Shown here piece after piece: positions 6,421-52,639 of a stretch of 64,000 bases of DNA. The notes below the pieces were generated by a model. It ran no database searches. It worked only from the letters and a program-made list of their open reading frames with translations, and was not told where the DNA came from. The stretch covers positions 259,519 through 323,518 of the forward strand of contig JACOZV010000001.1 of assembly GCA_016181175.1 (NCBI GenBank). Direction: 5' to 3'. Position 1 is the stretch's first letter; each line of letters begins with the position of its first letter. A program made the position numbers and the translations under genes. The DNA comes from Candidatus Yanofskybacteria bacterium (GTDB taxonomy: Bacteria > Patescibacteriota > Minisyncoccia > 2-02-FULL-40-12 > IGHO2-01-FULL-4-A).

Positions 6421-6837
6421 TCAAAACAAATACAAAAATAAAATTGCGCCGGTGAAGTTTAATGCAAGGTCAAATAAACCATCCTTCCATTCGTAATTCA
6501 CGCTTTTAAGTCTGAATTTACTTTTTATGTATCTTGAAAGCGTCGGAGCAGACGCAATCAAAAACTCCGCCGATTCCCACAAAATGCTGATGATACCAAG
6601 ACTTATTAAAATCAAACTGACGGAGCTGAAAAAACTTGAGAAAAACATAGCTACAAAAAACCCGCCCAAAAAATGCAATGTCTGGAAAAACCAGTAATGC
6701 CGAACACCAAAACCGTAGTACATTCCCACAACCAAATTGAGAACAAAAATACCCAATAGTATGGCAACCGATGCCATCATCGTGGCAAGATTTATGTTTT
6801 CCATATTTTTATTATACAAGAATACGAGCTTTCTCAA
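6421..6837 (-). CDS. hypothetical membrane protein
   Basis: 138 aa, several hydrophobic helices. Confidence 0.45.
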   Translation of the reverse strand: MRKLVFLYNKNMENINLATMMASVAILLGIFVLNLVVGMYYGFGVRHYWFFQTLHFLGGFFVAMFFSSFFSSVSLILISLGIISILWESAEFLIASAPTLSRYIKSKFRLKSVNYEWKDGLFDLALNFTGAILFLYLF

Positions 6838-6907
6838 AAATTACAAACCAAGCTCACCCTCTGATTTTCTTACAACGTCATGCCTTTCTGCAAATTTTCC
6901 TCACCGT

Positions 6908-6989
6908 GCTATTGTTCCTGGCAATTTGCGGTTATCCATTCCCCCTTCGTCTTCTGACTCCGGGGCCCGCAAATTGCCAGCGGAACAAT
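6908..6989. repeat. 22-bp inverted repeat with 35-bp spacer in divergent intergenic region
   Basis: ctattgttcctggcaatttgcgg ... ccgcaaattgccagcggaacaata. Confidence 0.6.
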
Positions 6990-7125
6990 AAACGCCCGGT
7001 TCGTTAATTTACTAGTCGGCAGACGAATGACGAAAATCAAGAGGTTTCGCTTGCCTTTGGTTTGTAATTTTTTAGCGAACCATTGTGCCTTTTGTGATTT
7101 TTGTGGATAGCAAAATGGAAAAGCG

Positions 7126-9124: not shown

Positions 9125-9160
9125 ACAAAGACCCAGATCGGGTCTTTTAATTTAGCAAGG

Positions 9161-9475
9161 GGGTTGACCCCGCACCTTTTCAGCACAATAATCACAGCAT
9201 GCACTGGTTATACATAATTAAAAGTAAGGAAAATGGAGAATTATATATCGGCAGCACAGGAAATTTAGTGAAAAGACTGGCCGAACATAATACTGGCAAA
9301 TCTAGAGCTACGACCAGATATAAACCATGGTTTTTTGTTTATATTGAAGGCTATTTTTCTAAGGATGATGCCTTGCATCGCGAACGGAATCTGAAATACT
9401 TTGGCAAAGTCTATGCCCAATTAAAAAGACGTATTAAAAATAGCCTTCAGGGTGCTGAAAAGGTGCGGGGTTGAC
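9161..9475 (+). mobile_element. family-2 inverted-repeat element enclosing a GIY-YIG nuclease ORF
   Basis: ggttgaccccgcaccttttcagcac ... gtgctgaaaaggtgcggggttgac flank the ORF exactly. Confidence 0.6.
9199..9474 (+). CDS. GIY-YIG nuclease family protein (YhbQ/UPF0213-like)
   Basis: 91 aa; YIGSTGNL...RLAEHN GIY-YIG core. Confidence 0.75.
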   Translation: MHWLYIIKSKENGELYIGSTGNLVKRLAEHNTGKSRATTRYKPWFFVYIEGYFSKDDALHRERNLKYFGKVYAQLKRRIKNSLQGAEKVRG

Positions 9476-9548: not shown

Positions 9549-10472
9549 GTGTCTGACGAAAAAAATGCCATTCCTCTCCAATCGAAAATCAAGCGGGTGA
9601 CCATTAAAACCTTGCATGACATGAAGAAAAAAAGACCGGAGCCGGAAATTATTTGTGCTTTGAGCATCTATGATTCTTTACATGCCCGGCTATTTGACAG
9701 GGCTGGCGGAGATATGATTATTGTCGGCGATTCTGTAGGTATGACTTTGCAGGGTAGAGCTAACACCCTGCCGGTAACAATGGATGAAATGGTTATGTTT
9801 ACCCAAGCTGTAAGAAGGGGCACGGATAGATTATTTGTTGTTGGTGATATGCCCTTGGGTTCGTATGAGGTTTCAAACGAAGAAGCGGTGCGTAATGCTT
9901 TGCGCTTTGTCAAAGAAGCGGGTTGTAACGCAGTGAAGGTGGAAACCAATCTTGATTACATTGACCGCATCAGAGTTATTGCCAGCGCCTGTTTGGTGGT
10001 GGCGCATATCGGTTTAAATCCCAACAAAGCCGAGATGCTTGGAGGTTACAGGACGCAAGGTAAGACAAGAGAAAGCTTTTTGGAATTAAGCAAGGTAATT
10101 GTTGAAGCTGAAAAAGCGGGTGCCTGTATAATTTTAATAGAATCGGTTACGGAAGAAATAGCCGAAATGCTAAAGTCCAAAGTTAATATTCCAGTATTTG
10201 GCATTGCCGCCGGTCGCAAGCTTGATGGCCAGCTTGTCATCAGTTCTGATTTACTTGGATTTTTCGAATGGCCGGGCAACCCCCCGATTCACTTTGAAAA
10301 ATATCTTACAGAAAGACAGGGCATTACGATCGGTGATGTTACCCTGGATGCTTTTCGCTGGTATGTCAAAGCCGTAAAGGAAAAAAGATTTCCAAGCGAC
10401 AAACATGTCCATCACATTTCAGCCGACGAGTTAAGTCAAGTGTTACAAACCAATAACAATTCATCAGCCTAA
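9549..10472 (+). CDS. panB: 3-methyl-2-oxobutanoate hydroxymethyltransferase (PanB)-like protein with C-terminal extension
   Basis: IVGDSVGMTLQG and VVGDMPLGSYE match PanB hallmark GDSLGM / DMPFGSY. Confidence 0.65.
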   Translation: MSDEKNAIPLQSKIKRVTIKTLHDMKKKRPEPEIICALSIYDSLHARLFDRAGGDMIIVGDSVGMTLQGRANTLPVTMDEMVMFTQAVRRGTDRLFVVGDMPLGSYEVSNEEAVRNALRFVKEAGCNAVKVETNLDYIDRIRVIASACLVVAHIGLNPNKAEMLGGYRTQGKTRESFLELSKVIVEAEKAGACIILIESVTEEIAEMLKSKVNIPVFGIAAGRKLDGQLVISSDLLGFFEWPGNPPIHFEKYLTERQGITIGDVTLDAFRWYVKAVKEKRFPSDKHVHHISADELSQVLQTNNNSSA

Positions 10473-15422: not shown

Positions 15423-17927
15423 ATGAATAATAAACTTAAAATATTTTTTGTGAGAAAAAACATTACACGTTTTTTTATTTTTTTAACGCCCGTAATAATT
15501 ACACTGGTTTTAATCGGCCCTACTCTTTGGGGCGGCAAGGTGTTTTTGGATTCCGCGCATTCTACGGTTCAATATTCGGCCCTGTTTTCCCTAAAGAGTT
15601 CTCTTAATTCCGGTGTATGGTTTCCGGTTTGGATTTCCCAATGGACAAGCGGATTTTCCCTCTGGCTACTTCCGGCGAATTTCGGGCTATTAAACCCGCT
15701 CCATATTATTCTGACTAAATTTTTAGATTTTGCTTTGGCGTCCCATATTCTTACCCTTTTTTATTTTATAGCCGGATTTTATGCGGCATATTTTTTGGGC
15801 AGGGCGTTGAGTTTATCCAGGGCTGCCTCCCTTATTGTCGCTCTAGCTTATGCTTTTAACAGTTTTAATGTTTGGTGGGGGCTTCTCCTTTCCTTTTCGT
15901 TTCTCTATTTTCTTTTGCCTTTTTTGTTTTTGACGTTGCTTAAGGCTTATCGGGGTGAGCGCAAGTTTATATATTGGTCGGCCCTTTTTATTTTTTTGGC
16001 TTGGCCGTTCGCTCTGCCCCAGATATTTTTATACTCGCTTATTGCGACATTTGCTTTTGCTTTGTATTTAGACTTTGCCAAACGTACGGAAGGTTTAGTT
16101 CAGAAACGCTGGCTGGCCATTAAAAGTTTTTTTTACTTTATCATCCCCGGCACTTTTTTGGCTCTCATTTGGTTGCTTCCGGTTTATGATTTTATTCAGC
16201 TTTCTTCCAGAGCCGGAGGTCTTGCTTTAGAGGCGGCAGGAGAAGGACGGCTTCTACCTTGGGATCTCATTTTTTCATATATCTATCCGTCTTTTTCAAT
16301 GCCCAAACTTATCCGCGAACATTTTTTATATATCGGTATTTTACCTTTTGCTTTAGCCATTTTTTCTTTGGTAAATTTTAGAAAAGACCGGCTGGTTAGA
16401 TTTTTTTTCATCGGTTATATTTTTATTATCTCTGCTTTATTTCCCGGTTCGCCTGTTTGGAGATTATTTAACATTACTCCGGTGCTTAATCTTTTCCGAG
16501 TGCCCCTGCAGTTACTTTTCGTGGGAAATTTTTTCTTGGCGATACTTGCTGGATTCGGTTTAGACGGATTGTCGGAAAACAAAACAATCTCGTATCTAAG
16601 GTTTTTCAAAAATTATGTCCGGGGATTGAAAATAATGGTTATATTTGGACTTGCGACGGCAATGGTTATAGCATTGATTATGAAGTTTTACAGGTCTAAC
16701 CTGCAAAATTTCGGTTATAATTATTTTGTTGAAAACTTGTTGCAATATACAAAATACCGTCCCTTGGAGCACTACTATGCCTTAATCAACGGATATTTTG
16801 ATAAGTTTTCTTGGCACGTATCTTTTCTAAATCCATATTTTTTGACCGCACTGTTTACGTTGAGTGCGGTTTTCGCCCTATTTTATTTTTACAGTCGGGG
16901 CAAACTTACATTTAACAACTTTAAAATAATCGCCGTTATTATTACTGTTCTTGATTTACTTTTCGTTTGGCGTGGCCACTACAGATTTATGCCCAGGGAT
17001 TGGTTAGACCCGGCTCCGGCGGCGGTATTTCTGAATTCAAGGGATAAAGAACCATTTAGGATTTATGTCATTTCCGAAGGGTATTTAGAGCTGGAAAAAA
17101 TGGGCTATGATAAATACGACCTCTCTAATTACAAAAAAGATATGCTTTTTAAACGGAGCCGGATGCTTGGTTTTGGATTAAACGGCGTATCTGGCATACA
17201 AGGTGAAATAACGATGCTTGATACGCGCCGTTATGCCAAAATTATAGATCTTATTACAGATTCAGACGACGGAAGGAGAATAGAACTTTCAACCGCTGAC
17301 AGAATTAAAGCATGGCAATCTTTGCAAAACAGAAATTTGCTTTCAATGATGAATGTAAAATACATTATTTCATCCTTTGACTTTAAGATGCCATGGAAAA
17401 AGATATTTGAAACCAAACCGGTTGAGGACGAGAAAATTATGACTTATGTTTATGAAAATACCGAAGTTTTGCCTAGGGTCTATTTTGCTAATAATGCAAG
17501 TTTTGCAGAACCAGACGAGTCCAGCACCAGTTTAGCCAAGGCCAAACTGGTGCTGGACGAGGCCAAAGCTTTTGACGCGTTACTGGCTATTAAAAACTTT
17601 AAGAACACAACGCTTGTTGAATGTGCGAGCGGGGATTGCGCTTATTCGGGCCAGCCGAATTTCAAAGATAGTCTGGAAATCATTGAAAAAAAAGAAGGCT
17701 ATTTAAAAGTTAAAACGCAAACCAAAAATCCAAGATATTTAGTTTATTCGGAGTCTAATTTGCCGTATTGGGAGGCGAGGATTGATGGGAAAATGTCCCC
17801 GATTCTTATGGCAAATTACGCGTATCAGGCGGTTTTGGTTCCACCGGGGGAGCATTTAGTGGAATTTCAGTATCCCGGCCCAATTACGCAGTTTAAGTAC
17901 TCACTCAAAAAACTGCTTGATTTCTAG
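15423..17927 (+). CDS. large polytopic membrane protein, YfhO-like (glycan/teichoic-acid glycosylation family)
   Basis: 834 aa, >12 predicted TM helices N-terminal, large C-terminal extracytoplasmic domain. Confidence 0.5.
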   Translation: MNNKLKIFFVRKNITRFFIFLTPVIITLVLIGPTLWGGKVFLDSAHSTVQYSALFSLKSSLNSGVWFPVWISQWTSGFSLWLLPANFGLLNPLHIILTKFLDFALASHILTLFYFIAGFYAAYFLGRALSLSRAASLIVALAYAFNSFNVWWGLLLSFSFLYFLLPFLFLTLLKAYRGERKFIYWSALFIFLAWPFALPQIFLYSLIATFAFALYLDFAKRTEGLVQKRWLAIKSFFYFIIPGTFLALIWLLPVYDFIQLSSRAGGLALEAAGEGRLLPWDLIFSYIYPSFSMPKLIREHFLYIGILPFALAIFSLVNFRKDRLVRFFFIGYIFIISALFPGSPVWRLFNITPVLNLFRVPLQLLFVGNFFLAILAGFGLDGLSENKTISYLRFFKNYVRGLKIMVIFGLATAMVIALIMKFYRSNLQNFGYNYFVENLLQYTKYRPLEHYYALINGYFDKFSWHVSFLNPYFLTALFTLSAVFALFYFYSRGKLTFNNFKIIAVIITVLDLLFVWRGHYRFMPRDWLDPAPAAVFLNSRDKEPFRIYVISEGYLELEKMGYDKYDLSNYKKDMLFKRSRMLGFGLNGVSGIQGEITMLDTRRYAKIIDLITDSDDGRRIELSTADRIKAWQSLQNRNLLSMMNVKYIISSFDFKMPWKKIFETKPVEDEKIMTYVYENTEVLPRVYFANNASFAEPDESSTSLAKAKLVLDEAKAFDALLAIKNFKNTTLVECASGDCAYSGQPNFKDSLEIIEKKEGYLKVKTQTKNPRYLVYSESNLPYWEARIDGKMSPILMANYAYQAVLVPPGEHLVEFQYPGPITQFKYSLKKLLDF

Positions 17928-17934
17928 TTCTAAA

Positions 17935-18094
17935 AGCTTGGCAAATACTGCCTTCTATCACCGCTAGCAACCCCAGCGAGATTGCGTCGCTCCGTTGAAA
18001 GCGTGGATTCGCCTCGCAGTTCAACCATTATACTGCTCGGTGACCGTGCAATCCACCCTTTCAACGGTGCTATAAAGCAGTATTTGCCAAGCTT
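17935..18094 (+). repeat. family-1 TIR/stem element
   Basis: aagcttggcaaatactgc...gcagtatttgccaagctt termini; internal tatcacc, cccagcgag, ccgttgaaagcgtggatt / aatccaccctttcaacgg. Confidence 0.75.
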
Positions 18095-18147
18095 TTAGAC
18101 TTGACATGTAATGTGTCCGCATATTAAATTTTATATTACTTAATGCC

Positions 18148-21807: not shown

Positions 21808-22428
21808 TTATTTATTTTCTTTAGTCAAAAGATAAATATCCAAAATGCAGTCGAGAATGAAAAGGTGGGTTCTTTCGGTGTGACGATAGGCAGTTGATGG
21901 TACCGCATATTTAGTCAGTAATGGCACATAGAAATTAATGTCGCCCATTTGACGCAATCTGTTATTCGACTGAAAACCGGATAGAGTGATTATGGCTAAA
22001 CCCTTAGATTTGGCTGTGGCAACCGCGTTAATAATATTTTGTGATTCGCCGGAACTTGAAATTGCGATTAAAATATCGCCCGCTTGCCCAAAAGTATCAA
22101 GTGGCAGTTCAAAAACTCTTTCCCAACCCATGTCGTTTGCCGTGGCGGTGAGCATGGCCGGATCGTTGAAAGTATGAGCCTTCAAACCGCAAAACTTCCA
22201 AAAACGATTTGCCGTTTCGCTGGCAATTGAGGCGCTTCCACCGTTTCCGATTATAAAAATACGACCGCCGGATTGTTTTAGAACCTTTAACTTTGAGATG
22301 GCCGCAAAAACCACCCTTGAAAATTTTCTTGGAACGTCACAACAATCAGCCTCAATTGAACTAATAGAATCTACACATTGTTTAAAATATTCTTTGCATG
22401 CTGAATCTCGCCAGTCTAAAGTGTCCAT
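21808..22428 (-). CDS. gmhA: SIS-domain sugar-phosphate isomerase (GmhA/DiaA-like, sedoheptulose-7-phosphate isomerase family)
   Basis: IFIIGNGGSASIASE ... DILIAISSSGES. Confidence 0.75.
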   Translation of the reverse strand: MDTLDWRDSACKEYFKQCVDSISSIEADCCDVPRKFSRVVFAAISKLKVLKQSGGRIFIIGNGGSASIASETANRFWKFCGLKAHTFNDPAMLTATANDMGWERVFELPLDTFGQAGDILIAISSSGESQNIINAVATAKSKGLAIITLSGFQSNNRLRQMGDINFYVPLLTKYAVPSTAYRHTERTHLFILDCILDIYLLTKENK

Positions 22429-22548: not shown

Positions 22549-22689
22549 CTAACGGGATGAATCCCGAACGAGACAGCCTTTGCCAACAACAAGGAAGGGT
22601 TACGATGGCTATCTAAACGGGATTAATAAAGTATTTTTAATAGGCACGGAAATGATTTACTCAATAAATCATTTCCTGTCTCGTACGGG
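22549..22689 (+). repeat. family-3 element: gaatcccgaacgagacag / ctgtctcgtacggg arms with internal hairpin, ending at start codon
   Basis: near-identical copy at 30285-30377 (opposite strand). Confidence 0.75.
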
Positions 22690-23652
22690 ATGAGACGATA
22701 CCTATTTTTATTAATTCAGATTGTTGTCAGCGCGATGCTGGTTTTTTTTATTTTTCAAAATATTCATTTCGGTGACCTCTCGGGAGCGTTTAAGAACGTG
22801 CAGATAGAATATATTTTTATTGCTTTGGTGTTTTCCATTCCCGCGTGGCTTGTGGGTATTTTCAAATGGCAATTCCTGGCCAAAACCATCGTGGACAAAA
22901 CCCCGCCTTTTAGATTTTTTATTTCATACTATCTTGTGGGATATTTCTACGCTTTATTTGTGCCAGGCGGCCAACTTCTAGGCGAAGGAATGAAGGCTTG
23001 GAGGATGTCTAACAAGTCAGAATTCAAACCCCAGTTGTATTTATCGGTTTTTGCCGATAAGGCCATAGGTTTTATGGCTCTAGGCTGTCTGGTTTTAATA
23101 TCTTTTTTGACACAGCCTGTTTTATACGGCGACAGATTGAGTATTTTGAGTCTCGCGGTAAGTGCCGCCATTGTGCTGGCCGGTATTATGATTTTCTTCA
23201 GTCGCGTTTTGCTGGAATACTTTTATAAGGTTCCTGAATTTTTAGTCAAATTTTTGCCGTTATTTATAGCCGGCCACGTCGCCATTTTAAAGGGACTTCT
23301 CATTAAATACAATCAGCGCAGAAAATCTACTCTTATAGGTATCGGAATCGGAGCCATTGCACAGCTTATATGGGTTTTGGTTATATATTTTATTGCCCTC
23401 TCATTTAATCTCCATGTACCATTTTTATTTATTGCCTGGACTTTTTTGATAATGTCTGTAGCCACTTTTCTGCCGGTATCCTATGCCGGCTTGGGAGTGA
23501 GAGAGGGAACGTTTGTCTATTTTTTTTCGTTGTTGGGCGTATCCCGTGAGCTAGCCTTAAGCATATCGCTTATGCTATTCGGTTTTCAGGTGCTGGCTGC
23601 TTTAATCGGGGGAGGTTTTGAATTAAAAGAATTATGGAGTAGAATAAAATAA
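22690..23652 (+). CDS. polytopic membrane protein, flippase-like / lysylphosphatidylglycerol-synthase-TM-region (UPF0104) family
   Basis: 320 aa, ~8 TM helices. Confidence 0.5.
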   Translation: MRRYLFLLIQIVVSAMLVFFIFQNIHFGDLSGAFKNVQIEYIFIALVFSIPAWLVGIFKWQFLAKTIVDKTPPFRFFISYYLVGYFYALFVPGGQLLGEGMKAWRMSNKSEFKPQLYLSVFADKAIGFMALGCLVLISFLTQPVLYGDRLSILSLAVSAAIVLAGIMIFFSRVLLEYFYKVPEFLVKFLPLFIAGHVAILKGLLIKYNQRRKSTLIGIGIGAIAQLIWVLVIYFIALSFNLHVPFLFIAWTFLIMSVATFLPVSYAGLGVREGTFVYFFSLLGVSRELALSISLMLFGFQVLAALIGGGFELKELWSRIK

Positions 23653-23658
23653 AATCAC

Positions 23659-25956
23659 ATGCGCGAGCTATTACTAGTCAAAATCACTAAATATTTAGTT
23701 TATGCCACGGCCTTTGTGCCGTTGATTATATTCTCGCAATTCATATCGCCATTCCATTTCGGCAAAGTGGTGGTTTTTCGTTCGCTTGTGGAGATAATGG
23801 CCGTTTTTTATTTTATTCTGATCATCAAAGACAGAGGTTATTTTCCCAAAAAGCATATACTTCTGACAATTTTCTCTCTTTTCACGCTGATTTTTGTCAT
23901 TTCAACTTTTATCAGCGTCAACCCTTATCTAAGTTTTTGGGGTTCGCTTGAACGTATGGGCGGACTCTGGAGTTTTATCCATTATCTTGTCTATTTCATA
24001 ATTCTTATTTCCATATTCAAGACCCGCGAGGACTGGCTGCGGTTGTTTAAGATAGTTATTTTTGTCGGAGCTCTTTCCGCGTTTTATGGTTTTGGCCAAA
24101 AGACAAATATTGAATTTTTCATAGGTTCTGGGAAACGCGAGAGGATATTTGGCACTATCGGCAATGCCGCTCTGTTTGCTGGTTATCAGATTATAATTTT
24201 ATTCCTTGCTTTGTCTTTGGCTCTTTCTTCTTGGGTATCGACTAAACACAGAGGTTATTTTTTTACCGCCGCTCTTATAAACACAGTTGCTGTTTTAATG
24301 ACTGCCGTTAGGGGTTCTATATTGGGTGTTGGCGTAGGTTTTTTACTTTTTGCTTTCCTTTACACTATTTCTTCTCATTCGCGTACGGCAAAAAAGATTT
24401 TATTGGGCTTGGTCGGTTTGGCTGTTATTTTTGTCGGGTTTGCTTTTGCTTTCAAAACCTCCAATTTTGTAAAAAGTTCCGGTTACTTGACGCGTTTGAC
24501 TGATTTTTCATTCCAGACGCTTACGGTTCAAACTCGTTTTTGGGCTTGGCGAGCTGGGTTAACCGGCTGGGTGGAGACACCAAAAACAATTTTATTCGGC
24601 TGGGGTCCGGAAAACTTTAATGTCCCTTTTTCCAAGCATTTTAATCCCAAGTTTTTCCGCGGTATTGGTTCTGAAACTCTTTTTGACCGTGCCCATAATC
24701 AGTTCGTTGAGATTTTAGTAACAATGGGCGCATTGGCATTTCTGCTCTATATAGCCCTGTTTGCTGTAGCCATGCGTTTGTTGTGGAAACGCGTAGTGCA
24801 AAACGGAAAAGAAAGGGCGATTGGTGTGGGTTTGATATCTTTAATTACCGCATATATTATTCACAATTCATTCATATTTGACACCTCGGCTAATTTTATA
24901 ATATTTTTTACGGTTTTAGGTTTTATTGCATGGTTGACCCCGCACCTTTCTGCGGCAGGTAACATGGGCTTGCGCGAAGCGCAGCCGCAGAAAGGTGCGG
25001 GGCAAGCCCCCATTACCAGTTACCAGTTACCAGTTACCAGTTATAAATTAACCGTCGGTCAACAAACCCTATTGTTTCTTTTGCTGATTGGCGCGGCAGT
25101 CCTGATTTATCGGACGAATATCACGCAGTCCAAGGCTAATTACACAACCACACGTGCCATTGTTAGAAGTTGGTCTGGGGATTTTGATGGTGCTTTGGCT
25201 AAGTATAAAGAAGCGTTGGCTTACGATATACCCGGCAAATATGAGTATCGCCACCGTTTTGCCCAGTGGCTTCTTGAATATGCAAATGGCAAAAAACGGG
25301 GAGAAAAAGAAGAGGCCGCTTTGACGTATGCCATACAGCAAGTGCAGAAAAATGCTGATGAGTCTAATCAGGACTATTTACCATATCTTTACATTTCGCG
25401 TGCCTATATAATTTTAGGCAAAGACGATCTGAAATCGCCGTATAACGACGAAGCATTAAAAAATTCTATGAAAGCATTGGAAATTTCTCCAAGTTTTGTA
25501 AGAGCGTATTACGAAGTAGCGCAGGCTTTTCTAAATAAAAAAGATTATAGCAATGCTATAAAATATTTTGAGCAGGCAGTTAAATTAAACCCCGATGTTG
25601 GTTTGAGCCATTGGTACTTGGGGGCAATCCTAATAGAAACGGGCGATATCGAGGGGGGATTAAAGGCGGTTAGCAGAGCCACTGAACTGGGTTATATGCT
25701 TTCCGAATCCGATACCTTAAGACTGATCAACCTTTACATTAAAACCGGCGATCTTAACAAAATAACTTTCCTTTTTGAGAGATTGATTAGTATAAAGCCC
25801 AATAACCCGCAATATCGTGCTTCGTTGGCGGCAGGTTATGCAAAAATCGGAAAAATAGATGAAGCAGTTGAACAGGCACGTGCCGCTGCTCAACTAGACA
25901 AAACTTTTGAAAGTGAAGCTCGTTCGTTTGTGCGGAGTTTGGGCAGGGAGTGGTAA
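23659..25956 (+). CDS. O-antigen ligase/polymerase (Wzy_C)-like membrane protein with C-terminal TPR repeats; carries in-frame repeat insertion
   Basis: multi-TM N-terminal domain, TPR-like C-terminal; palindrome + heptamer repeat at 24942-25043 inside CDS. Confidence 0.6.
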   Translation: MRELLLVKITKYLVYATAFVPLIIFSQFISPFHFGKVVVFRSLVEIMAVFYFILIIKDRGYFPKKHILLTIFSLFTLIFVISTFISVNPYLSFWGSLERMGGLWSFIHYLVYFIILISIFKTREDWLRLFKIVIFVGALSAFYGFGQKTNIEFFIGSGKRERIFGTIGNAALFAGYQIIILFLALSLALSSWVSTKHRGYFFTAALINTVAVLMTAVRGSILGVGVGFLLFAFLYTISSHSRTAKKILLGLVGLAVIFVGFAFAFKTSNFVKSSGYLTRLTDFSFQTLTVQTRFWAWRAGLTGWVETPKTILFGWGPENFNVPFSKHFNPKFFRGIGSETLFDRAHNQFVEILVTMGALAFLLYIALFAVAMRLLWKRVVQNGKERAIGVGLISLITAYIIHNSFIFDTSANFIIFFTVLGFIAWLTPHLSAAGNMGLREAQPQKGAGQAPITSYQLPVTSYKLTVGQQTLLFLLLIGAAVLIYRTNITQSKANYTTTRAIVRSWSGDFDGALAKYKEALAYDIPGKYEYRHRFAQWLLEYANGKKRGEKEEAALTYAIQQVQKNADESNQDYLPYLYISRAYIILGKDDLKSPYNDEALKNSMKALEISPSFVRAYYEVAQAFLNKKDYSNAIKYFEQAVKLNPDVGLSHWYLGAILIETGDIEGGLKAVSRATELGYMLSESDTLRLINLYIKTGDLNKITFLFERLISIKPNNPQYRASLAAGYAKIGKIDEAVEQARAAAQLDKTFESEARSFVRSLGREW
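24942..25003 (+). repeat. family-2 inverted repeat (ggttgaccccgcacctttctgcggc...gccgcagaaaggtgcgggg) inside CDS, in frame
   Basis: same arms as 9161/9455. Confidence 0.75.
25014..25043 (+). repeat. heptamer tandem repeat (accagtt)x4
   Basis: direct reading; related heptamers at 47691-47768. Confidence 0.8.
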
Positions 25957-28018: not shown

Positions 28019-28168
28019 GCTCGCCATTATGCCTCCTATCACCATTTGAATTCCCAGCGAGAATTCTACATTCCGTCAAAAGCGTGGATTTTGCTCGCAG
28101 TGTTTTACTATTATACTGCTCGCAAACCGTGCAATCCACTCTTTTGACGGTGCTATGAGGCATAATGC
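28019..28168 (+). repeat. family-1 TIR/stem element
   Basis: ctcgccattatgcctcctatcacc...cccagcgag...ccgtcaaaagcgtggatt...aatccactcttttgacggtgctatgaggcataatgc. Confidence 0.75.
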
Positions 28169-28661: not shown

Positions 28662-28949
28662 TTTAATCTCCTATTTTTAAAAAACTAGTTTAAAACAGCA
28701 TAGCATAAATAGTGATATGTTGTCAAATTTTTGCTATGTTTCAGAATGCTTTCTCAAAAATTAAAAAACCTAAGCCGTCAACAGACGGCGGTTTTTATCA
28801 CTCCCATAATTGTTAAGGAGAGGATGTCAGTTTCCGGCGCAGGCGGACCCTTTTTGTGAAAAATCCCAGCAGGGTGGATTGAACAAAAAGGGTCCGCGGA
28901 GCCGGAAGATAAACTATTATGCTACCTTATTTTAATTTTTGAGGTCTAA

Positions 28950-35498: not shown

Positions 35499-35531
35499 TT
35501 CAATTTGTTTATTTTGTGATAAATTATAGGG

Positions 35532-35690
35532 GCTTAGCGAATAATACCTTCTATCACCATTTGTCGCCCCAGCGAGGCGACTGCATTCCGTCAAAAATAT
35601 TAATTTTGATTTTGTTGAAGAAATATTGTAACAAAATCAAACCATGCAATTAACACTTTTGACGGTGCTATAAGGTATTATTCGCTAAGC
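35532..35690 (+). repeat. family-1 TIR/stem element
   Basis: gcttagcgaataatacc...ggtattattcgctaagc termini; tatcacc, ccccagcgag, ccgtcaaaa / ttttgacggtgctata. Confidence 0.75.
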
Positions 35691-35700
35691 CCGTTCATAT

Positions 35701-39107: not shown

Positions 39108-39167
39108 CTGATTTTAAGCCGCTTTCATGTTTAAAATTAACTGTTAATATTAATAGAGTCAACCCCG

Positions 39168-39240
39168 TTAGAAGTCTCGCTCGTGCCTAATGGCACGAGT
39201 CCGAAGGACATCGGCGAGGCCACTTCTAACGGGGTCAACC
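39168..39240. repeat. family-2 inverted repeat, ORF-less (gtcaaccccgttagaagt...acttctaacggggtcaacc)
   Basis: arms share gttgaccccg core with 9161 element. Confidence 0.7.
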
Positions 39241-39724: not shown

Positions 39725-39847
39725 GAATCCCGAACGAGACAGCTAATTTTTACCTTGCTAAATAATTGCCGTGTTATTAGTTGTCATTTATGGCGGGATT
39801 ACTTATAATCAACGGAAATGCATAAAGCATTTCCTGTCTCGTACGGG
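39725..39847 (+). repeat. family-3 element spanning the whole intergenic spacer (arm after stop, arm before ATG)
   Basis: gaatcccgaacgagacagc ... ggaaatgcataaagcatttcctgtctcgtacggg-ATG. Confidence 0.75.
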
Positions 39848-43778: not shown

Positions 43779-43891
43779 TCCCGTTAGAAGTCGCCCTAAC
43801 GGGTTCGCGGTCATAATTAGCAAATAATTTAAAGTCTTATTGTTTAGCCGTAACTTATGTATAAGGCTACACAGTAGCGACTTCTAACGGG
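43779..43891. repeat. family-2-related inverted repeat, ORF-less (cccgttagaagtcgc ... gcgacttctaacggg)
   Basis: arms share ccgttagaagt with 39168 copy. Confidence 0.65.
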
Positions 43892-43895
43892 ACAA

Positions 43896-45287: not shown

Positions 45288-45291
45288 ATAT

Positions 45292-45570
45292 GAATCCCAA
45301 ACGAGACAGCAAAACCATGTTTTATACATATGTTTTAAGAAATAAAAAAAGCCGCTTTTATGTTGGTTTTACTTATGATTTACGGAAACGCTTCAATGAA
45401 CATAATAATAAAAAATCAACTTATACAAAATATCGTGGCCCATACGAACTTATTTACTATGAAGCTTGTCTTGATGAGAATGACGCTCGTTAAAGAGAAA
45501 AGTATTTTAAATCTGGAACAGGTAAACGCTACTTCAAAAACAGATTGAAGCGTTTCCTGTCTCGTACTGG
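45292..45570 (+). mobile_element. family-3 arms enclosing a GIY-YIG ORF, inserted between secD and secF
   Basis: gaatcccaaacgagacagc after secD stop; ttcctgtctcgtactgg immediately before secF ATG. Confidence 0.6.
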
Positions 45571-45571
45571 A
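45317..45571 (+). pseudogene. GIY-YIG nuclease (YhbQ-like) interrupted by in-frame TAA at codon 59; would otherwise end ATGA-overlapped with secF
   Basis: FYTYVLRNKKSRFYVGFTYDLRKRFNEHN...YELIYYEACLDENDAR-stop-REKYFKSGTGKRYFKNRLKRFL. Confidence 0.6.
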
Positions 45572-46461
45572 TGAAACCCATATATACAATTATGTTTTTT
45601 ATTTCCATGGCGCTGACTGTCGCGGCCGTTATTTTGGTGGCAGTTTTTGGTTTGCGTTTTGGGGTAGATTTCAAGGGCGGCTCTTTACTGGAAATTGCCT
45701 TTGTTAATCCTCGTCCATCAACCGGAGAAATACAAAATATTATAAGCGGGATTGACGGTGTCAAAAACATAAATGTAAATCCGGTGGGTGACAACGGTGC
45801 TTTAATAAGGCTAAATGATATCAATGAGCAGACTCATCAAGATATTTTAACTAAGATTTCCGGAAGTTTTGGTGAGATAATGGAAAATCGCTTTGATTCC
45901 ATAGGTCCTGTAGTCGGCAATGAGTTGAGAGATAAGAGCGTTAAGGCAATAGTAATTTTATTAATAGCTATAATTATTTATCTCGCTTTTGTTTTTAGGA
46001 AAATTTCACGCGTTCTTTCCTCTTGGGCTATGGGTTTAGCTGCCATTGTTGCGCTGGTTCATGATGTTATTATACCCGTTGGCGTTTTTGCGTTACTTGG
46101 GCATTATTATGGAATTGAGATTACGGCAATTTTTGTGGCGGCCGCATTAACTATTTTGGGGTATTCGCTTTCTGACTCCGTTGTTATTTTTGATAGAGTA
46201 AGAGAAAACGTGCTTCGTTTGGGCATTTCTCATCAAAGTTTCGGAGCACTTGTCCACAAAAGTGTCTTACAAACCCTGGTCCGTTCCATTAATACGACCC
46301 TCACAACGCTATTTTCTCTGATTGTGATTTACTTTTTTGGAGGAGAATCAATAAAATACTTTTCTTTAGCCCTAATTATAGGTATTTTTTCAGGCGCTTA
46401 TTCTTCAATTTTTGTTGCTTCTCCGATTCTAGTTTGGCTTAGCAATCGACGCAAGAGTTAA
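45571..46461 (+). CDS. secF: protein-export membrane protein SecF
   Basis: 296 aa, 6-TM SecF pattern. Confidence 0.9.
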   Translation: MKPIYTIMFFISMALTVAAVILVAVFGLRFGVDFKGGSLLEIAFVNPRPSTGEIQNIISGIDGVKNINVNPVGDNGALIRLNDINEQTHQDILTKISGSFGEIMENRFDSIGPVVGNELRDKSVKAIVILLIAIIIYLAFVFRKISRVLSSWAMGLAAIVALVHDVIIPVGVFALLGHYYGIEITAIFVAAALTILGYSLSDSVVIFDRVRENVLRLGISHQSFGALVHKSVLQTLVRSINTTLTTLFSLIVIYFFGGESIKYFSLALIIGIFSGAYSSIFVASPILVWLSNRRKS

Positions 46462-50828: not shown

Positions 50829-51077
50829 GCAAACCCTGGAGTTACATCAAAAATTACAAATTTAATTAGCAAAAAAGATTATTTGCCGGCTACGCGCACG
50901 TGTTTTGCTGGCCCTCTTGGACAGGCGCAAAACGCGCGCGCCTCCGCCGGTAAGTAACATCCTCTGCTTAGCAATTATGGGAGTGATAAAAACCGCCGAT
51001 TGGTATCGGCTTTTGTTTTGTAATTTTTGATGATAGCAATTTGATTTTTTGTATTTTTTGATATTTAATCAAAGGTA

Positions 51078-52447: not shown

Positions 52448-52488
52448 TCCTGGTTTTGTAAACAAAATCGAGGATTCTCGATACAAAG

Positions 52489-52561
52489 TCCGTCCACCAG
52501 GAATCGAACCTGGAACCTTCTCCTTAAAAGGGAGCTGCTCTACCAATTGAGCTATGGACGG
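52489..52561 (-). tRNA. tRNA-Lys (anticodon UUU)
   Basis: manual fold: acceptor CCGTCCA/TGGACGG, U8, D-loop AATTGGTA, anticodon loop CUUUUAA, T-loop TTCGATT. Confidence 0.75.
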
Positions 52562-52639
52562 ACTTTGTATCGGAACTCTTCCGGGGAATTTTTTGACGGA
52601 AATCGAGACGATTTCCTAAAATTACCGTCAAAGCCAAGC

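Follow-up and report, generated by a model that had tools for sequence, protein, structure and literature searches.

Why should the gene of a small nuclease lie, almost to the base, between the two arms of a perfect inverted repeat? The question is raised by positions 9160–9475 of a 64,000-nucleotide (nt) stretch of contig JACOZV010000001.1 of Candidatus Yanofskybacteria bacterium, from here on the window, where an open reading frame (ORF) of 91 amino acids (aa), GIY-1, encodes a GIY-YIG nuclease domain and fills what would be the loop of a hairpin. Our answer, which we consider probable, is that the segment is an Ssn-type element, a GIY-YIG gene lying in the loop of the DNA hairpin that is cognate to it. 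Ssn enzymes are ~94-aa single-domain GIY-YIG nucleases (CDD cd10448) that bind a hairpin repeat, NTS/SRM, in single-stranded DNA (ssDNA) and cut a few bases 5' of the repeat, with no cutting of duplex DNA or RNA (Chenal et al., Nat Commun 2025, PMC11893778). Repeats dispersed in up to hundreds of copies flank the genes of these enzymes, nucleases and repeats have co-varying specificities, and in Neisseria, SsnA together with its repeats lowers transformation by repeat-flanked DNA (PMC11893778). A family directed at hairpins agrees with the structure-specific nuclease that an earlier note, made from the letters of this DNA, had proposed (PMC11893778). Literature searches on GIY-YIG with Patescibacteria, tRNA, RNase P RNA, cd10448 and Ssn follow-ups returned the 2025 Ssn paper alone.

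The flagged segment reads GGGGTTGA-CCCCGCACCTTTTCAGCAC-(12 nt)-ATG...ORF...-GTGCTGAAAAGGTGCGGGG-TTGAC, and is made up of the following parts:

9160–9168, + strand: left flanking direct repeat GGGGTTGAC, with TTGA at 9164–9167 (read from the sequence)
9164–9192, + strand: candidate sigma-70-like promoter, TTGACC-17 nt-AATAAT (10/12 matches; putative function)
9167–9186, + strand: left arm of the hairpin, ACCCCGCACCTTTTCAGCAC (inverted-repeat search; core CCCCGCACC recurs in homologous loci; arms covary)
9199–9474, + strand: GIY-1, gene of a probable Ssn-type single-domain GIY-YIG nuclease, 91 aa (Pfam PF01541, E=5.7e-19)
9345–9358, + strand: 5' half of an ORF-internal inverted repeat, TGAAGGCTATTTTT, codons EGYF (inverted-repeat search)
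9436–9449, + strand: 3' half of the ORF-internal inverted repeat, AAAAATAGCCTTCA, codons KNSL, 2 nt from the right arm
9452–9471, + strand: right arm of the hairpin, GTGCTGAAAAGGTGCGGGGT (inverted-repeat search; covariation)
9467–9475, + strand: right flanking direct repeat GGGGTTGAC, holding the stop codon TGA 9472–9474 (read from the sequence)

The two arms, 20 nt each and 265 nt apart, are 100% complementary. Even with up to 3 mismatches allowed, the arm 20-mer is found in the window at these two places only, and two matches appeared in 0/100 shuffles; the inverted repeat around the ORF is confirmed as real, and a chance match is ruled out. The earlier note had drawn the arms as 25 bp long. 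A perfect repeat does bracket the ORF, but it stops at 20 nt, and the outer GGTTGA and TTGAC are not complementary; they belong to GGGGTTGAC, a 9-nt direct repeat outside the arms and separate from the palindrome. The stop codon, which the note placed inside the right arm, lies in this direct repeat, one base past the perfect arm. GIY-1 thus takes its last six residues, AEKVRG, from the right arm and its TGA from the flanking TTGA; in most homologues the stop is a TAA within the arm proper, 14 nt before the arm end. TTGA...TTGA flanks are seen again around homologous elements of other genomes. At the right flank, TTGAC is probably native sequence upstream of panB, judging from the element-free panB locus L062, which has GGGGTGTTGAT at the homologous place.

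The left flank has a double character. The left GGGGTTGAC and the first CCCC of the arm make up a mini-hairpin, GGGG-TTGA-CCCC, and the flanking TTGA with the first CC of the arm supplies the −35 box of the candidate promoter, with the arm as its spacer, a layout also visible in L001 and L002. The −10 box ends 7 nt before the ATG, which suggests that the GIY-1 mRNA is likely leaderless. Within the ORF, the internal stem (9345–9358 with 9436–9449) keeps its position in most close homologues and shows compensatory variants (e.g., AAGGCTACGCC/GGCGTAGCCTT in L028). Another nuclease subfamily has a different internal inverted repeat, ~80 nt into the element.

A genome scan with one genome per species and the protein alignment as query gave 34 loci, mostly from Patescibacteria, with some from metagenome-assembled genomes (MAGs) labelled WOR-3, Elusimicrobia, Omnitrophota and others. 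Arms around the ORF were present in every homologous locus readable on both sides (36/36: 32 from the scan, the window and three metagenome loci), 246–275 nt apart. The outer arm core, CCCCGCACC/GGTGCGGGG, is conserved, with the variants CCCCTCACC, CCCACACC and CCCCGCACTAAC, whereas the inner half is variable and its changes are compensatory. Across 33 sequences, 97.1% of cells are paired, a percentage inflated by the inverted-repeat search that located the arms, and 15 of the 20 pairs have changed on both sides (147 cells); neither any of 500 shuffles nor any slid control came near the observed pairing. One-sided changes that keep a standard pair make up only 13 cells, and G–T pairs are very few, so that both strands can fold, which points to structure at the level of DNA rather than RNA. 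ORF-less hairpins with the matching core variant lie at most 10–16 kb from the gene in nine genomes, the window and eight others.

The protein itself points in the same direction. PF01541 covers residues 1–66 of GIY-1 with no second domain, and the catalytic-motif residues Y16, G18, R26, H30, E50, R61 and E62 are invariant in 25 homologues. An AlphaFold2 model (pLDDT 81) has a compact GIY-YIG fold, beta-beta-alpha-beta-alpha-alpha, with a disordered tail at 86–91. In a PDB set that holds no Ssn structure, its best structural matches are the UPF0213 protein BH0048 and Slx1 (TM score 0.6–0.66, root-mean-square deviation 2.0–2.2 Å), and the I-TevI fold is also among the matches; a search of NCBIfam gave a sub-threshold match to TIGR01453 only. 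UPF0213/YhbQ and Slx1 share the GIY-YIG (URI) fold with GIY-1. Slx1, however, needs Slx4 and has an extra RING-type domain, and we know of no association of YhbQ with hairpin repeats. An exact look-up of the GIY-1 protein sequence matched no record; the protein of a neighbouring gene is 100% identical to one from a Candidatus Yanofskybacteria MAG. There are 55 close homologues of GIY-1, the named ones all from Patescibacteria, and in many the called ORF runs into the arms, giving a tail encoded by the arm, (A)EKVRG, or an extension, 'TPHL', at the N-terminus.

For comparison with the Ssn family, we used two proteins recovered in this analysis. The Neisseria gonorrhoeae SsnA orthologue (94 aa) has nine exact NTS copies within 3.2 kb, on a chromosome filed as a plasmid; the Azospirillum homologue lies between sufB and sufC, with SRM doublets on its flanks. 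GIY-1 is 34% identical to the former over 70 aa (44 bits, pairwise E=2e-12), and the clade profile aligns with it at an hhalign probability of 97.7%. Among the clade members, 24 of 25 score higher against the two Ssn proteins (mean 44–51 bits) than against UPF0213 (29–35 bits), GIY-1 itself reaching 35 bits and 30% identity with BH0048. The YhbQ-like label of the earlier note has therefore to give way: membership of UPF0213/YhbQ is rejected on these scores (44–51 bits for the Ssn proteins, 35 bits for BH0048), and GIY-1 appears closer to the Ssn family, by a modest margin. In the Ssn paper, membership was drawn at blastp E<1e-10 to Nm SsnA (PMC11893778). The GIY-1 system is most likely a diverged Ssn/repeat pair with a different repeat geometry.

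GIY-1 is not alone. The window contains a second nuclease gene, GIY-2, and five ORF-less hairpins, listed with a strand where a gene gives one:

22563–22689: ORF-less hairpin, family 2, CCCGAACGAGACAG / CTGTCTCGTACGGG, flanks ATGAAT / ATGAGA
24938–25002: ORF-less hairpin, GIY-1 arm family, CCCCGCACCTTTCTGCGGC / GCCGCAGAAAGGTGCGGGG, 19-nt perfect inverted repeat with a 27-nt loop (DNA fold −35.7 kcal/mol, z −8.3)
39162–39235: ORF-less hairpin, family 3, ACCCCGTTAGAAGT / ACTTCTAACGGGGT, flanks TCAA...TCAA
39729–39847: ORF-less hairpin, family 2, direct repeat ATGAAT on its flanks, ending at the probable start codon 39848
43779–43892: ORF-less hairpin, family 3, TCCCGTTAGAAGTCGC / GCGACTTCTAACGGGA, 3 nt upstream of the secD start
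45296–45570, + strand: GIY-2 element, arms CCCAAACGAGACAG (45296–45309) / CTGTCTCGTACTGG (45557–45570) (inverted-repeat and domain search)

The GIY-2 gene (45317–45574) shares 35% identity with GIY-1, and an in-frame TAA at 45491–45493 marks it as decayed. Its element stands between secD and secF within a direct repeat, ATGAA (45290–45294 and 45571–45575), whose right copy is the secF start codon; this ORF too has an internal inverted repeat (45384–45397 with 45544–45557), its 3' half abutting the right terminal arm. The family 2 arms CCCGAACGAGACAG/CTGTCTCGTACGGG agree with the GIY-2 arms at 12 of 14 positions, and hairpin 22563–22689 ends exactly at the ATG of ORF 22690–23652. Hairpin 24938–25002 has in common with the GIY-1 copy the left flank GGTTGA and the core CCCCGCACCTTT, and lies in frame within a Wzy_C-TPR gene (23659–25956, 765 aa), where it encodes ...TPHLSAAGNMGLREAQPQKGAG.... 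Directly after it, a tandem repeat of CCAGTTA (four copies at 24996–25050, peptide SYQLPVTSY) occupies the same hypervariable linker. The window thus has two nuclease genes with different arm types, each type also present as ORF-less hairpins, and a third hairpin family that is gene-less: no cognate nuclease gene for family 3, the CCCGTTAGAAG family, was found within the window. Hairpins with 14-nt arms starting with CCC number six in the window against none in each of 20 Markov controls; chance palindromes are rejected on these controls together with the 0/100 shuffles. The ORF-less hairpins fold as ssDNA with z-scores of −5.0 to −8.4.

Some of these hairpins had been seen in the earlier note, which overlooked the GIY-2 gene with its arms and the hairpins at 22563–22689 and 39729–39847. 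It was right that ORF-bearing and ORF-less copies share arms (core CCCCGCACCTTT), and the ORF-less copy it placed at 24942–25003 exists, at 24938–25002, with only 12–13 nt of arm and the flank in common. The hairpins it described as having a related core (39168–39240 and 43779–43891) exist as well, at 39162–39235 and 43779–43892, but their shared core, CCCGTTAGAAGT, marks a family separate from the GIY-1 arms. They are not steps of one series, and the ORF-less copy shares so little of the arm, around an unrelated interior, that the derivation of ORF-less from ORF-bearing copies is unsupported.

Both the ORF-bearing and the ORF-less hairpins are discrete insertions. Related genomes hold empty sites for the GIY-2 element and hairpin 43779–43892, and the window holds them for two hairpins of L088, a related Yanofskybacteria genome that is syntenic with the window at ~80% nucleotide identity and has its hairpins at other places. 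The secD–secF junction is empty in L090, L091 and L092: L091 reads TTTTAATTTT joined to ATGAAAAAT, where the window has TTTTAAAT-ATGAAT(element)ATGAAACCC, and ATGAA, a single copy in the empty sites, is duplicated. Hairpin 43779–43892 upstream of secD is absent at the same place in L090 and L091. Of the L088 hairpins, the first (CCCCGTTAGAAGT, L088 3116–3186) adds 75 nt in frame to the orthologue of window ORF 15423–17927, and the second (CCCGAACGAGACA) stands just before the ATG of the ORF 27042 orthologue; the window is empty at both. The in-frame hairpin is an 87% identical copy of family 3 hairpin 39162–39235, and an 88% identical copy of hairpin 22563–22689 lies in L088 at a different, nonorthologous site. 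Gene-bearing units have moved as well: in one MAG, two ORF-bearing copies (L017 and L019) are ~90% identical exactly arm to arm and have unrelated flanks, TCAA..TCAA and TTGA..TTGA, indicating insertion in either orientation.

The flanks carry a further signature. Among the 77 hairpins of all loci, 31 have flanking direct repeats of at least 4 nt, against ~0.4 expected, mostly TTGA but also TGAA, TAAA(A), TCAA and 7-mers. As the repeat differs among copies of one family in one genome (TTGA and TGAA in L042), it must derive from the target. For the in-frame hairpin in the Wzy_C-TPR gene, the peptide TPHLS...KGAGQAP is present in four orthologues and missing from equally close ones; the linker is hypervariable, so the comparison gives presence and absence only and no exact junctions for 24938–25002. 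The flagged copy itself is absent from all 35 related panB loci, as is the upstream radical-SAM gene. In place of the right flank of the window, GGGGTTGACTTTG...TTTACTGGTTAT, the closest of them, L062, keeps GGGGTGTTGAT...TTTACTGGTTAT. Upstream of panB in this 90%-identical relative there is another GC-rich hairpin of ~65 nt (L062 ~2900–2965, core GGGGCACACTGTGTGCCC), which the window lacks.

The places of insertion have much in common. Many copies stand at a TTGAC that is or could be a −35 box, among them a family 3 hairpin that precedes panB in L053, and many others exactly at a start codon (ATGA...). In five loci with arms CCCCTCACC (L029, L032, L033, L035 and L037; ~9980–10275 in most), the element lies directly against the start of a tRNA gene. 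In this tRNA-linked subfamily, the first G residues of the tRNA gene (Ala, Val or Met) form the end of the right arm, and tRNA positions 1–10 recur in the left flank; the 5' end of the tRNA is thus restored by a 7-nt duplication, positions 4–10, joined to GGG supplied by the element. Expression of the nuclease gene appears to depend here on the promoter of the tRNA. In WOR-3-type MAGs, an ORF-bearing element forms a 287-nt insert in one RNase P RNA hairpin, and an ORF-less hairpin of the same arm type lies in the P12 loop of rnpB (L049 9881–10658, RF00010, 236.6 bits; also L045 and L046). Since the arms pair, insertions can be tolerated in the linkers of proteins (in frame), in the leaders of tRNAs and in loops of RNase P RNA.

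Three loci are more complex. L046 comes from the MAG that also yielded L049 and resembles a second copy of rnpB that has been rearranged. In L034 (9940–10440), the element is followed by a truncated 5' tRNA half and then a complete tRNA-Ala, and a copy of the 16-nt palindrome ATCGAGGATCCTCGAT stands at either end of the unit, which suggests that an insertion of a different kind is nested here. In L027 (9958–10334), an ORF-less hairpin of the same arm type directly follows the ORF-bearing element, the two sharing one TTGA, and a right-arm remnant, TGCGGGG, stands on the left of the element; elements thus seem to insert side by side, leaving the junction palindrome GGTGCGGGG-TTGA-CCCCGCACC.

How, then, does the locus compare with the systems already known? 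Like the Ssn systems, it has a single-domain GIY-YIG nuclease of ~90–94 aa, a gene bracketed by inverted hairpin repeats that recur elsewhere in the genome, and repeat variants particular to each nuclease lineage. The repeat of Neisseria and Azospirillum starts with GTCAT(T/C)CCCGC and that of the window, on the strand opposite to the ORF, with GTCAACCCCGC, only the first bases, GTCA-N-CCCCGC, being alike. The hosts differ, as those here are Patescibacteria, and the Ssn paper mentions neither Patescibacteria nor tRNA (PMC11893778). Target duplications, empty sites, in-frame copies and insertions at tRNA and RNase P RNA are documented here and not in that paper. An architecture like that of insertion sequences (IS) and a parallel with REP/RAYT were raised by Chenal et al. 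as a hypothesis only (PMC11893778). Our data resemble REP/REPIN and RAYT in the single gene flanked by inverted short palindromes, in the dispersed gene-less hairpins and in a presumed recognition of ssDNA hairpins, but the enzyme here is a hydrolytic GIY-YIG nuclease and not an HUH/Y1 transposase, there are short target duplications, and no HUH/Y1 transposase was found beside the examined copies.

The insertions of miniature inverted-repeat transposable elements (MITEs) and of Rickettsia palindromic elements are likewise short palindromes between duplicated flanks, and some are in frame within genes. The retained in-frame peptide segments at window 24938–25002 and L088 3116–3186 resemble them in architecture; here, in contrast, the arms are shared with a partner that looks autonomous and encodes a nuclease, and the duplication length is variable. 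As in IS and MITE-like elements, terminal inverted repeats bound the unit, L017 and L019 being alike arm to arm; the sole ORF of the element is the GIY-YIG nuclease domain, and no recognised transposase or recombinase was found in it. Other element types were considered and rejected: an integron attC cassette, as there is no integrase and the stem is simple and perfect; IS200/IS605, as there is no TnpA or TnpB and the flanking tetranucleotide, varying within a family, derives from the target; and a group I intron with a homing gene, as the Rfam scan gave no intron. On viral contigs, an ORF-sized pattern had no matches and a hairpin-sized pattern two, both in GC-rich unrelated sequence, with no sign of a phage-borne element.

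By analogy with the enzymes of Neisseria and Wolbachia and related enzymes, GIY-1 would bind its arms when they are folded in ssDNA and nick the same strand a few bases beyond the hairpin foot, without cutting duplex DNA or RNA. We infer that the nuclease drives the mobility of the hairpins: nicking, followed by host replication or repair, may spread gene-bearing and gene-less hairpins alike. The sites of insertion are short and rich in T, A and G (TTGA, TGAA/ATGAA, TAAA), in many cases part of a −35 box or a start codon, and 3–9 nt of the target are duplicated; from the duplicated TTGA the element takes its putative −35 box and the flagged copy also its stop codon. A bolder proposal, which we advance tentatively and regard as doubtful in its full extent, is that the Ssn-type nuclease could be the sole enzyme of a previously unrecognised class of mobile element, with an ssDNA stage, nicking and host replication or repair, duplications of variable length, gene-less hairpins of the same arms mobilised in trans, and insertion at −35 boxes, start codons, tRNA 5' ends, protein linkers and RNase P RNA loops.

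Beyond the inflated pairing percentage, several observations weigh against an Ssn-type mobile element. The homology is moderate, as tblastn of GIY-1 against the N. gonorrhoeae SsnA orthologue gives E=3e-4 at database scale, and the hhalign scores of 69.5 for SsnA and 61.1 for UPF0213 leave only a modest margin. The published SRM motif, HGTCWYN(0-2)YYVSBRHN(0-5)WNVSBRGN(0-2)RNCYNB, has no match in the window and four related loci (nine matches in Neisseria and four in Azospirillum served as positive controls). The repeat here is a hairpin of 65–135 nt with a 13–20-bp stem, that of Ssn is 28 nt; and the gene lies inside one hairpin, between its arms, and not between complete hairpins as in Ssn. 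In hairpin 24938–25002, the likeness to the GIY-1 copy ends with the outer 12–13 nt of the arm and the flank, the interior being unrelated. Synteny ends at the flagged element, which makes the panB evidence indirect, with no clean empty site. Finally, a hydrolytic nuclease cannot by itself perform strand transfer, and duplications varying from 3 to 9 nt are unlike those of a classical transposase; on the other hand, such variation fits repair-mediated insertion better than it would a classical transposase.

Another possible explanation is a domesticated host system, in which the nuclease cuts incoming or exposed ssDNA at the repeats and controls transformation or recombination, the hairpins spread otherwise, by recombination or replication slippage, and the gene is merely marked by its own target sites. 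Such a host role is the only Ssn function with experimental support (PMC11893778), and it would agree with the retention of the nuclease clade across many Patescibacteria with intact catalytic residues and with the competence and type IV pilus genes that adjoin a homologue in L001. It leaves unexplained, however, the arm-bounded units duplicated at new loci in either orientation, the target-site duplications and the decay of one of the two nuclease genes in the window, and as a full account we think it unlikely. Host restriction of ssDNA and mobility are possibly both at work, as the two are not mutually exclusive. The small selfish element of the earlier note stands in part: both forms are insertions with flanking duplications, but selfishness is one reading only, as the characterised member has a host role in the control of transformation.

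Far less probable is a free-standing homing endonuclease gene that cuts pre-existing ORF-less host hairpins, such as terminators or REP-like repeats, and is copied into their loops by repair. Many GIY-YIG nucleases are homing enzymes, the weak TIGR01453 match and the I-TevI fold would suit one, and the ORF is always in the hairpin loop. Yet GIY-1 has only 91 aa and no DNA-binding domain, Ssn enzymes do not cut duplex DNA, and none of the ORF-less hairpins agrees with an ORF-bearing one in inner stem or loop ends, so that an empty allele is lacking; moreover, the hairpins are themselves insertions with target duplications, also inside genes. An I-TevI-type enzyme in particular is rejected, as a second domain, an intron within the window and an empty allele to match are all lacking. 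Hardly credible, lastly, is pairing of the arms in the transcript alone, which would stabilise, process (by RNase III) or regulate the mRNA of the nuclease and its neighbours and make the covariation a product of RNA selection only: the strong covariation of the arms and the second, internal stem and the insertions at transcribed, helix-tolerant places (RNase P RNA loops, tRNA leaders) would fit, but the compensation is almost purely Watson–Crick (13 one-sided against 147 two-sided cells), there is no Rfam match, gene-less copies occur in both orientations relative to genes, and the target duplications and empty sites are left unexplained.

The window holds further structured sequences, distinct from the elements discussed. 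An Rfam scan of the window at gathering thresholds gave tRNA-Lys only, with no intron, riboswitch or known RNA at any hairpin. That tRNA-Lys(TTT), on the − strand at 52488–52561, lies within a 27-nt inverted repeat (52470–52581) that lengthens the acceptor stem by ~18 bp into leader and trailer, an unusually long processing stem for a bacterial tRNA. A branched hairpin repeat family of ~165 nt has copies at 17929–18099, 35530–35692 and 28025–28167 and in L088 at 21851–21949, all intergenic and without an Rfam match, with the motifs CCTTCTATCACC...CCCAGCGAG...CATTCCGTCAAAAG...GACGGTGCTATAAGG; RNAalifold predicts 59 pairs, 25 with compensatory changes, and the family could be a small RNA or another mobile hairpin. 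Inverted-repeat pairs with AT-rich arms, CTCAAAAATTACAAA / TTTGTAATTTTTGAG, 150–200 nt apart, are found at 6833–7075, 50845–51032 and 28753–28943, one copy being 90.7% identical to a copy elsewhere in L088 (14590–14696).

Overall, with the flagged locus and its relatives, the Ssn family, first reported from Proteobacteria in 2025, also takes in Patescibacteria and further uncultivated phyla, where its form escapes the published repeat motif. The mobility of the unit and its role outside Neisseria were left open by the authors of that work, and empty sites, target duplications and arm-to-arm paralogues now supply comparative evidence for mobility. For annotation, such elements account for many of the small GC-rich palindromes and short 'hypothetical' gene extensions in these reduced genomes. 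If the nuclease does drive the spread of its hairpins, this would be a route of transposition without a transposase, and the family would be a source of many new nuclease/hairpin pairs for ssDNA tools.

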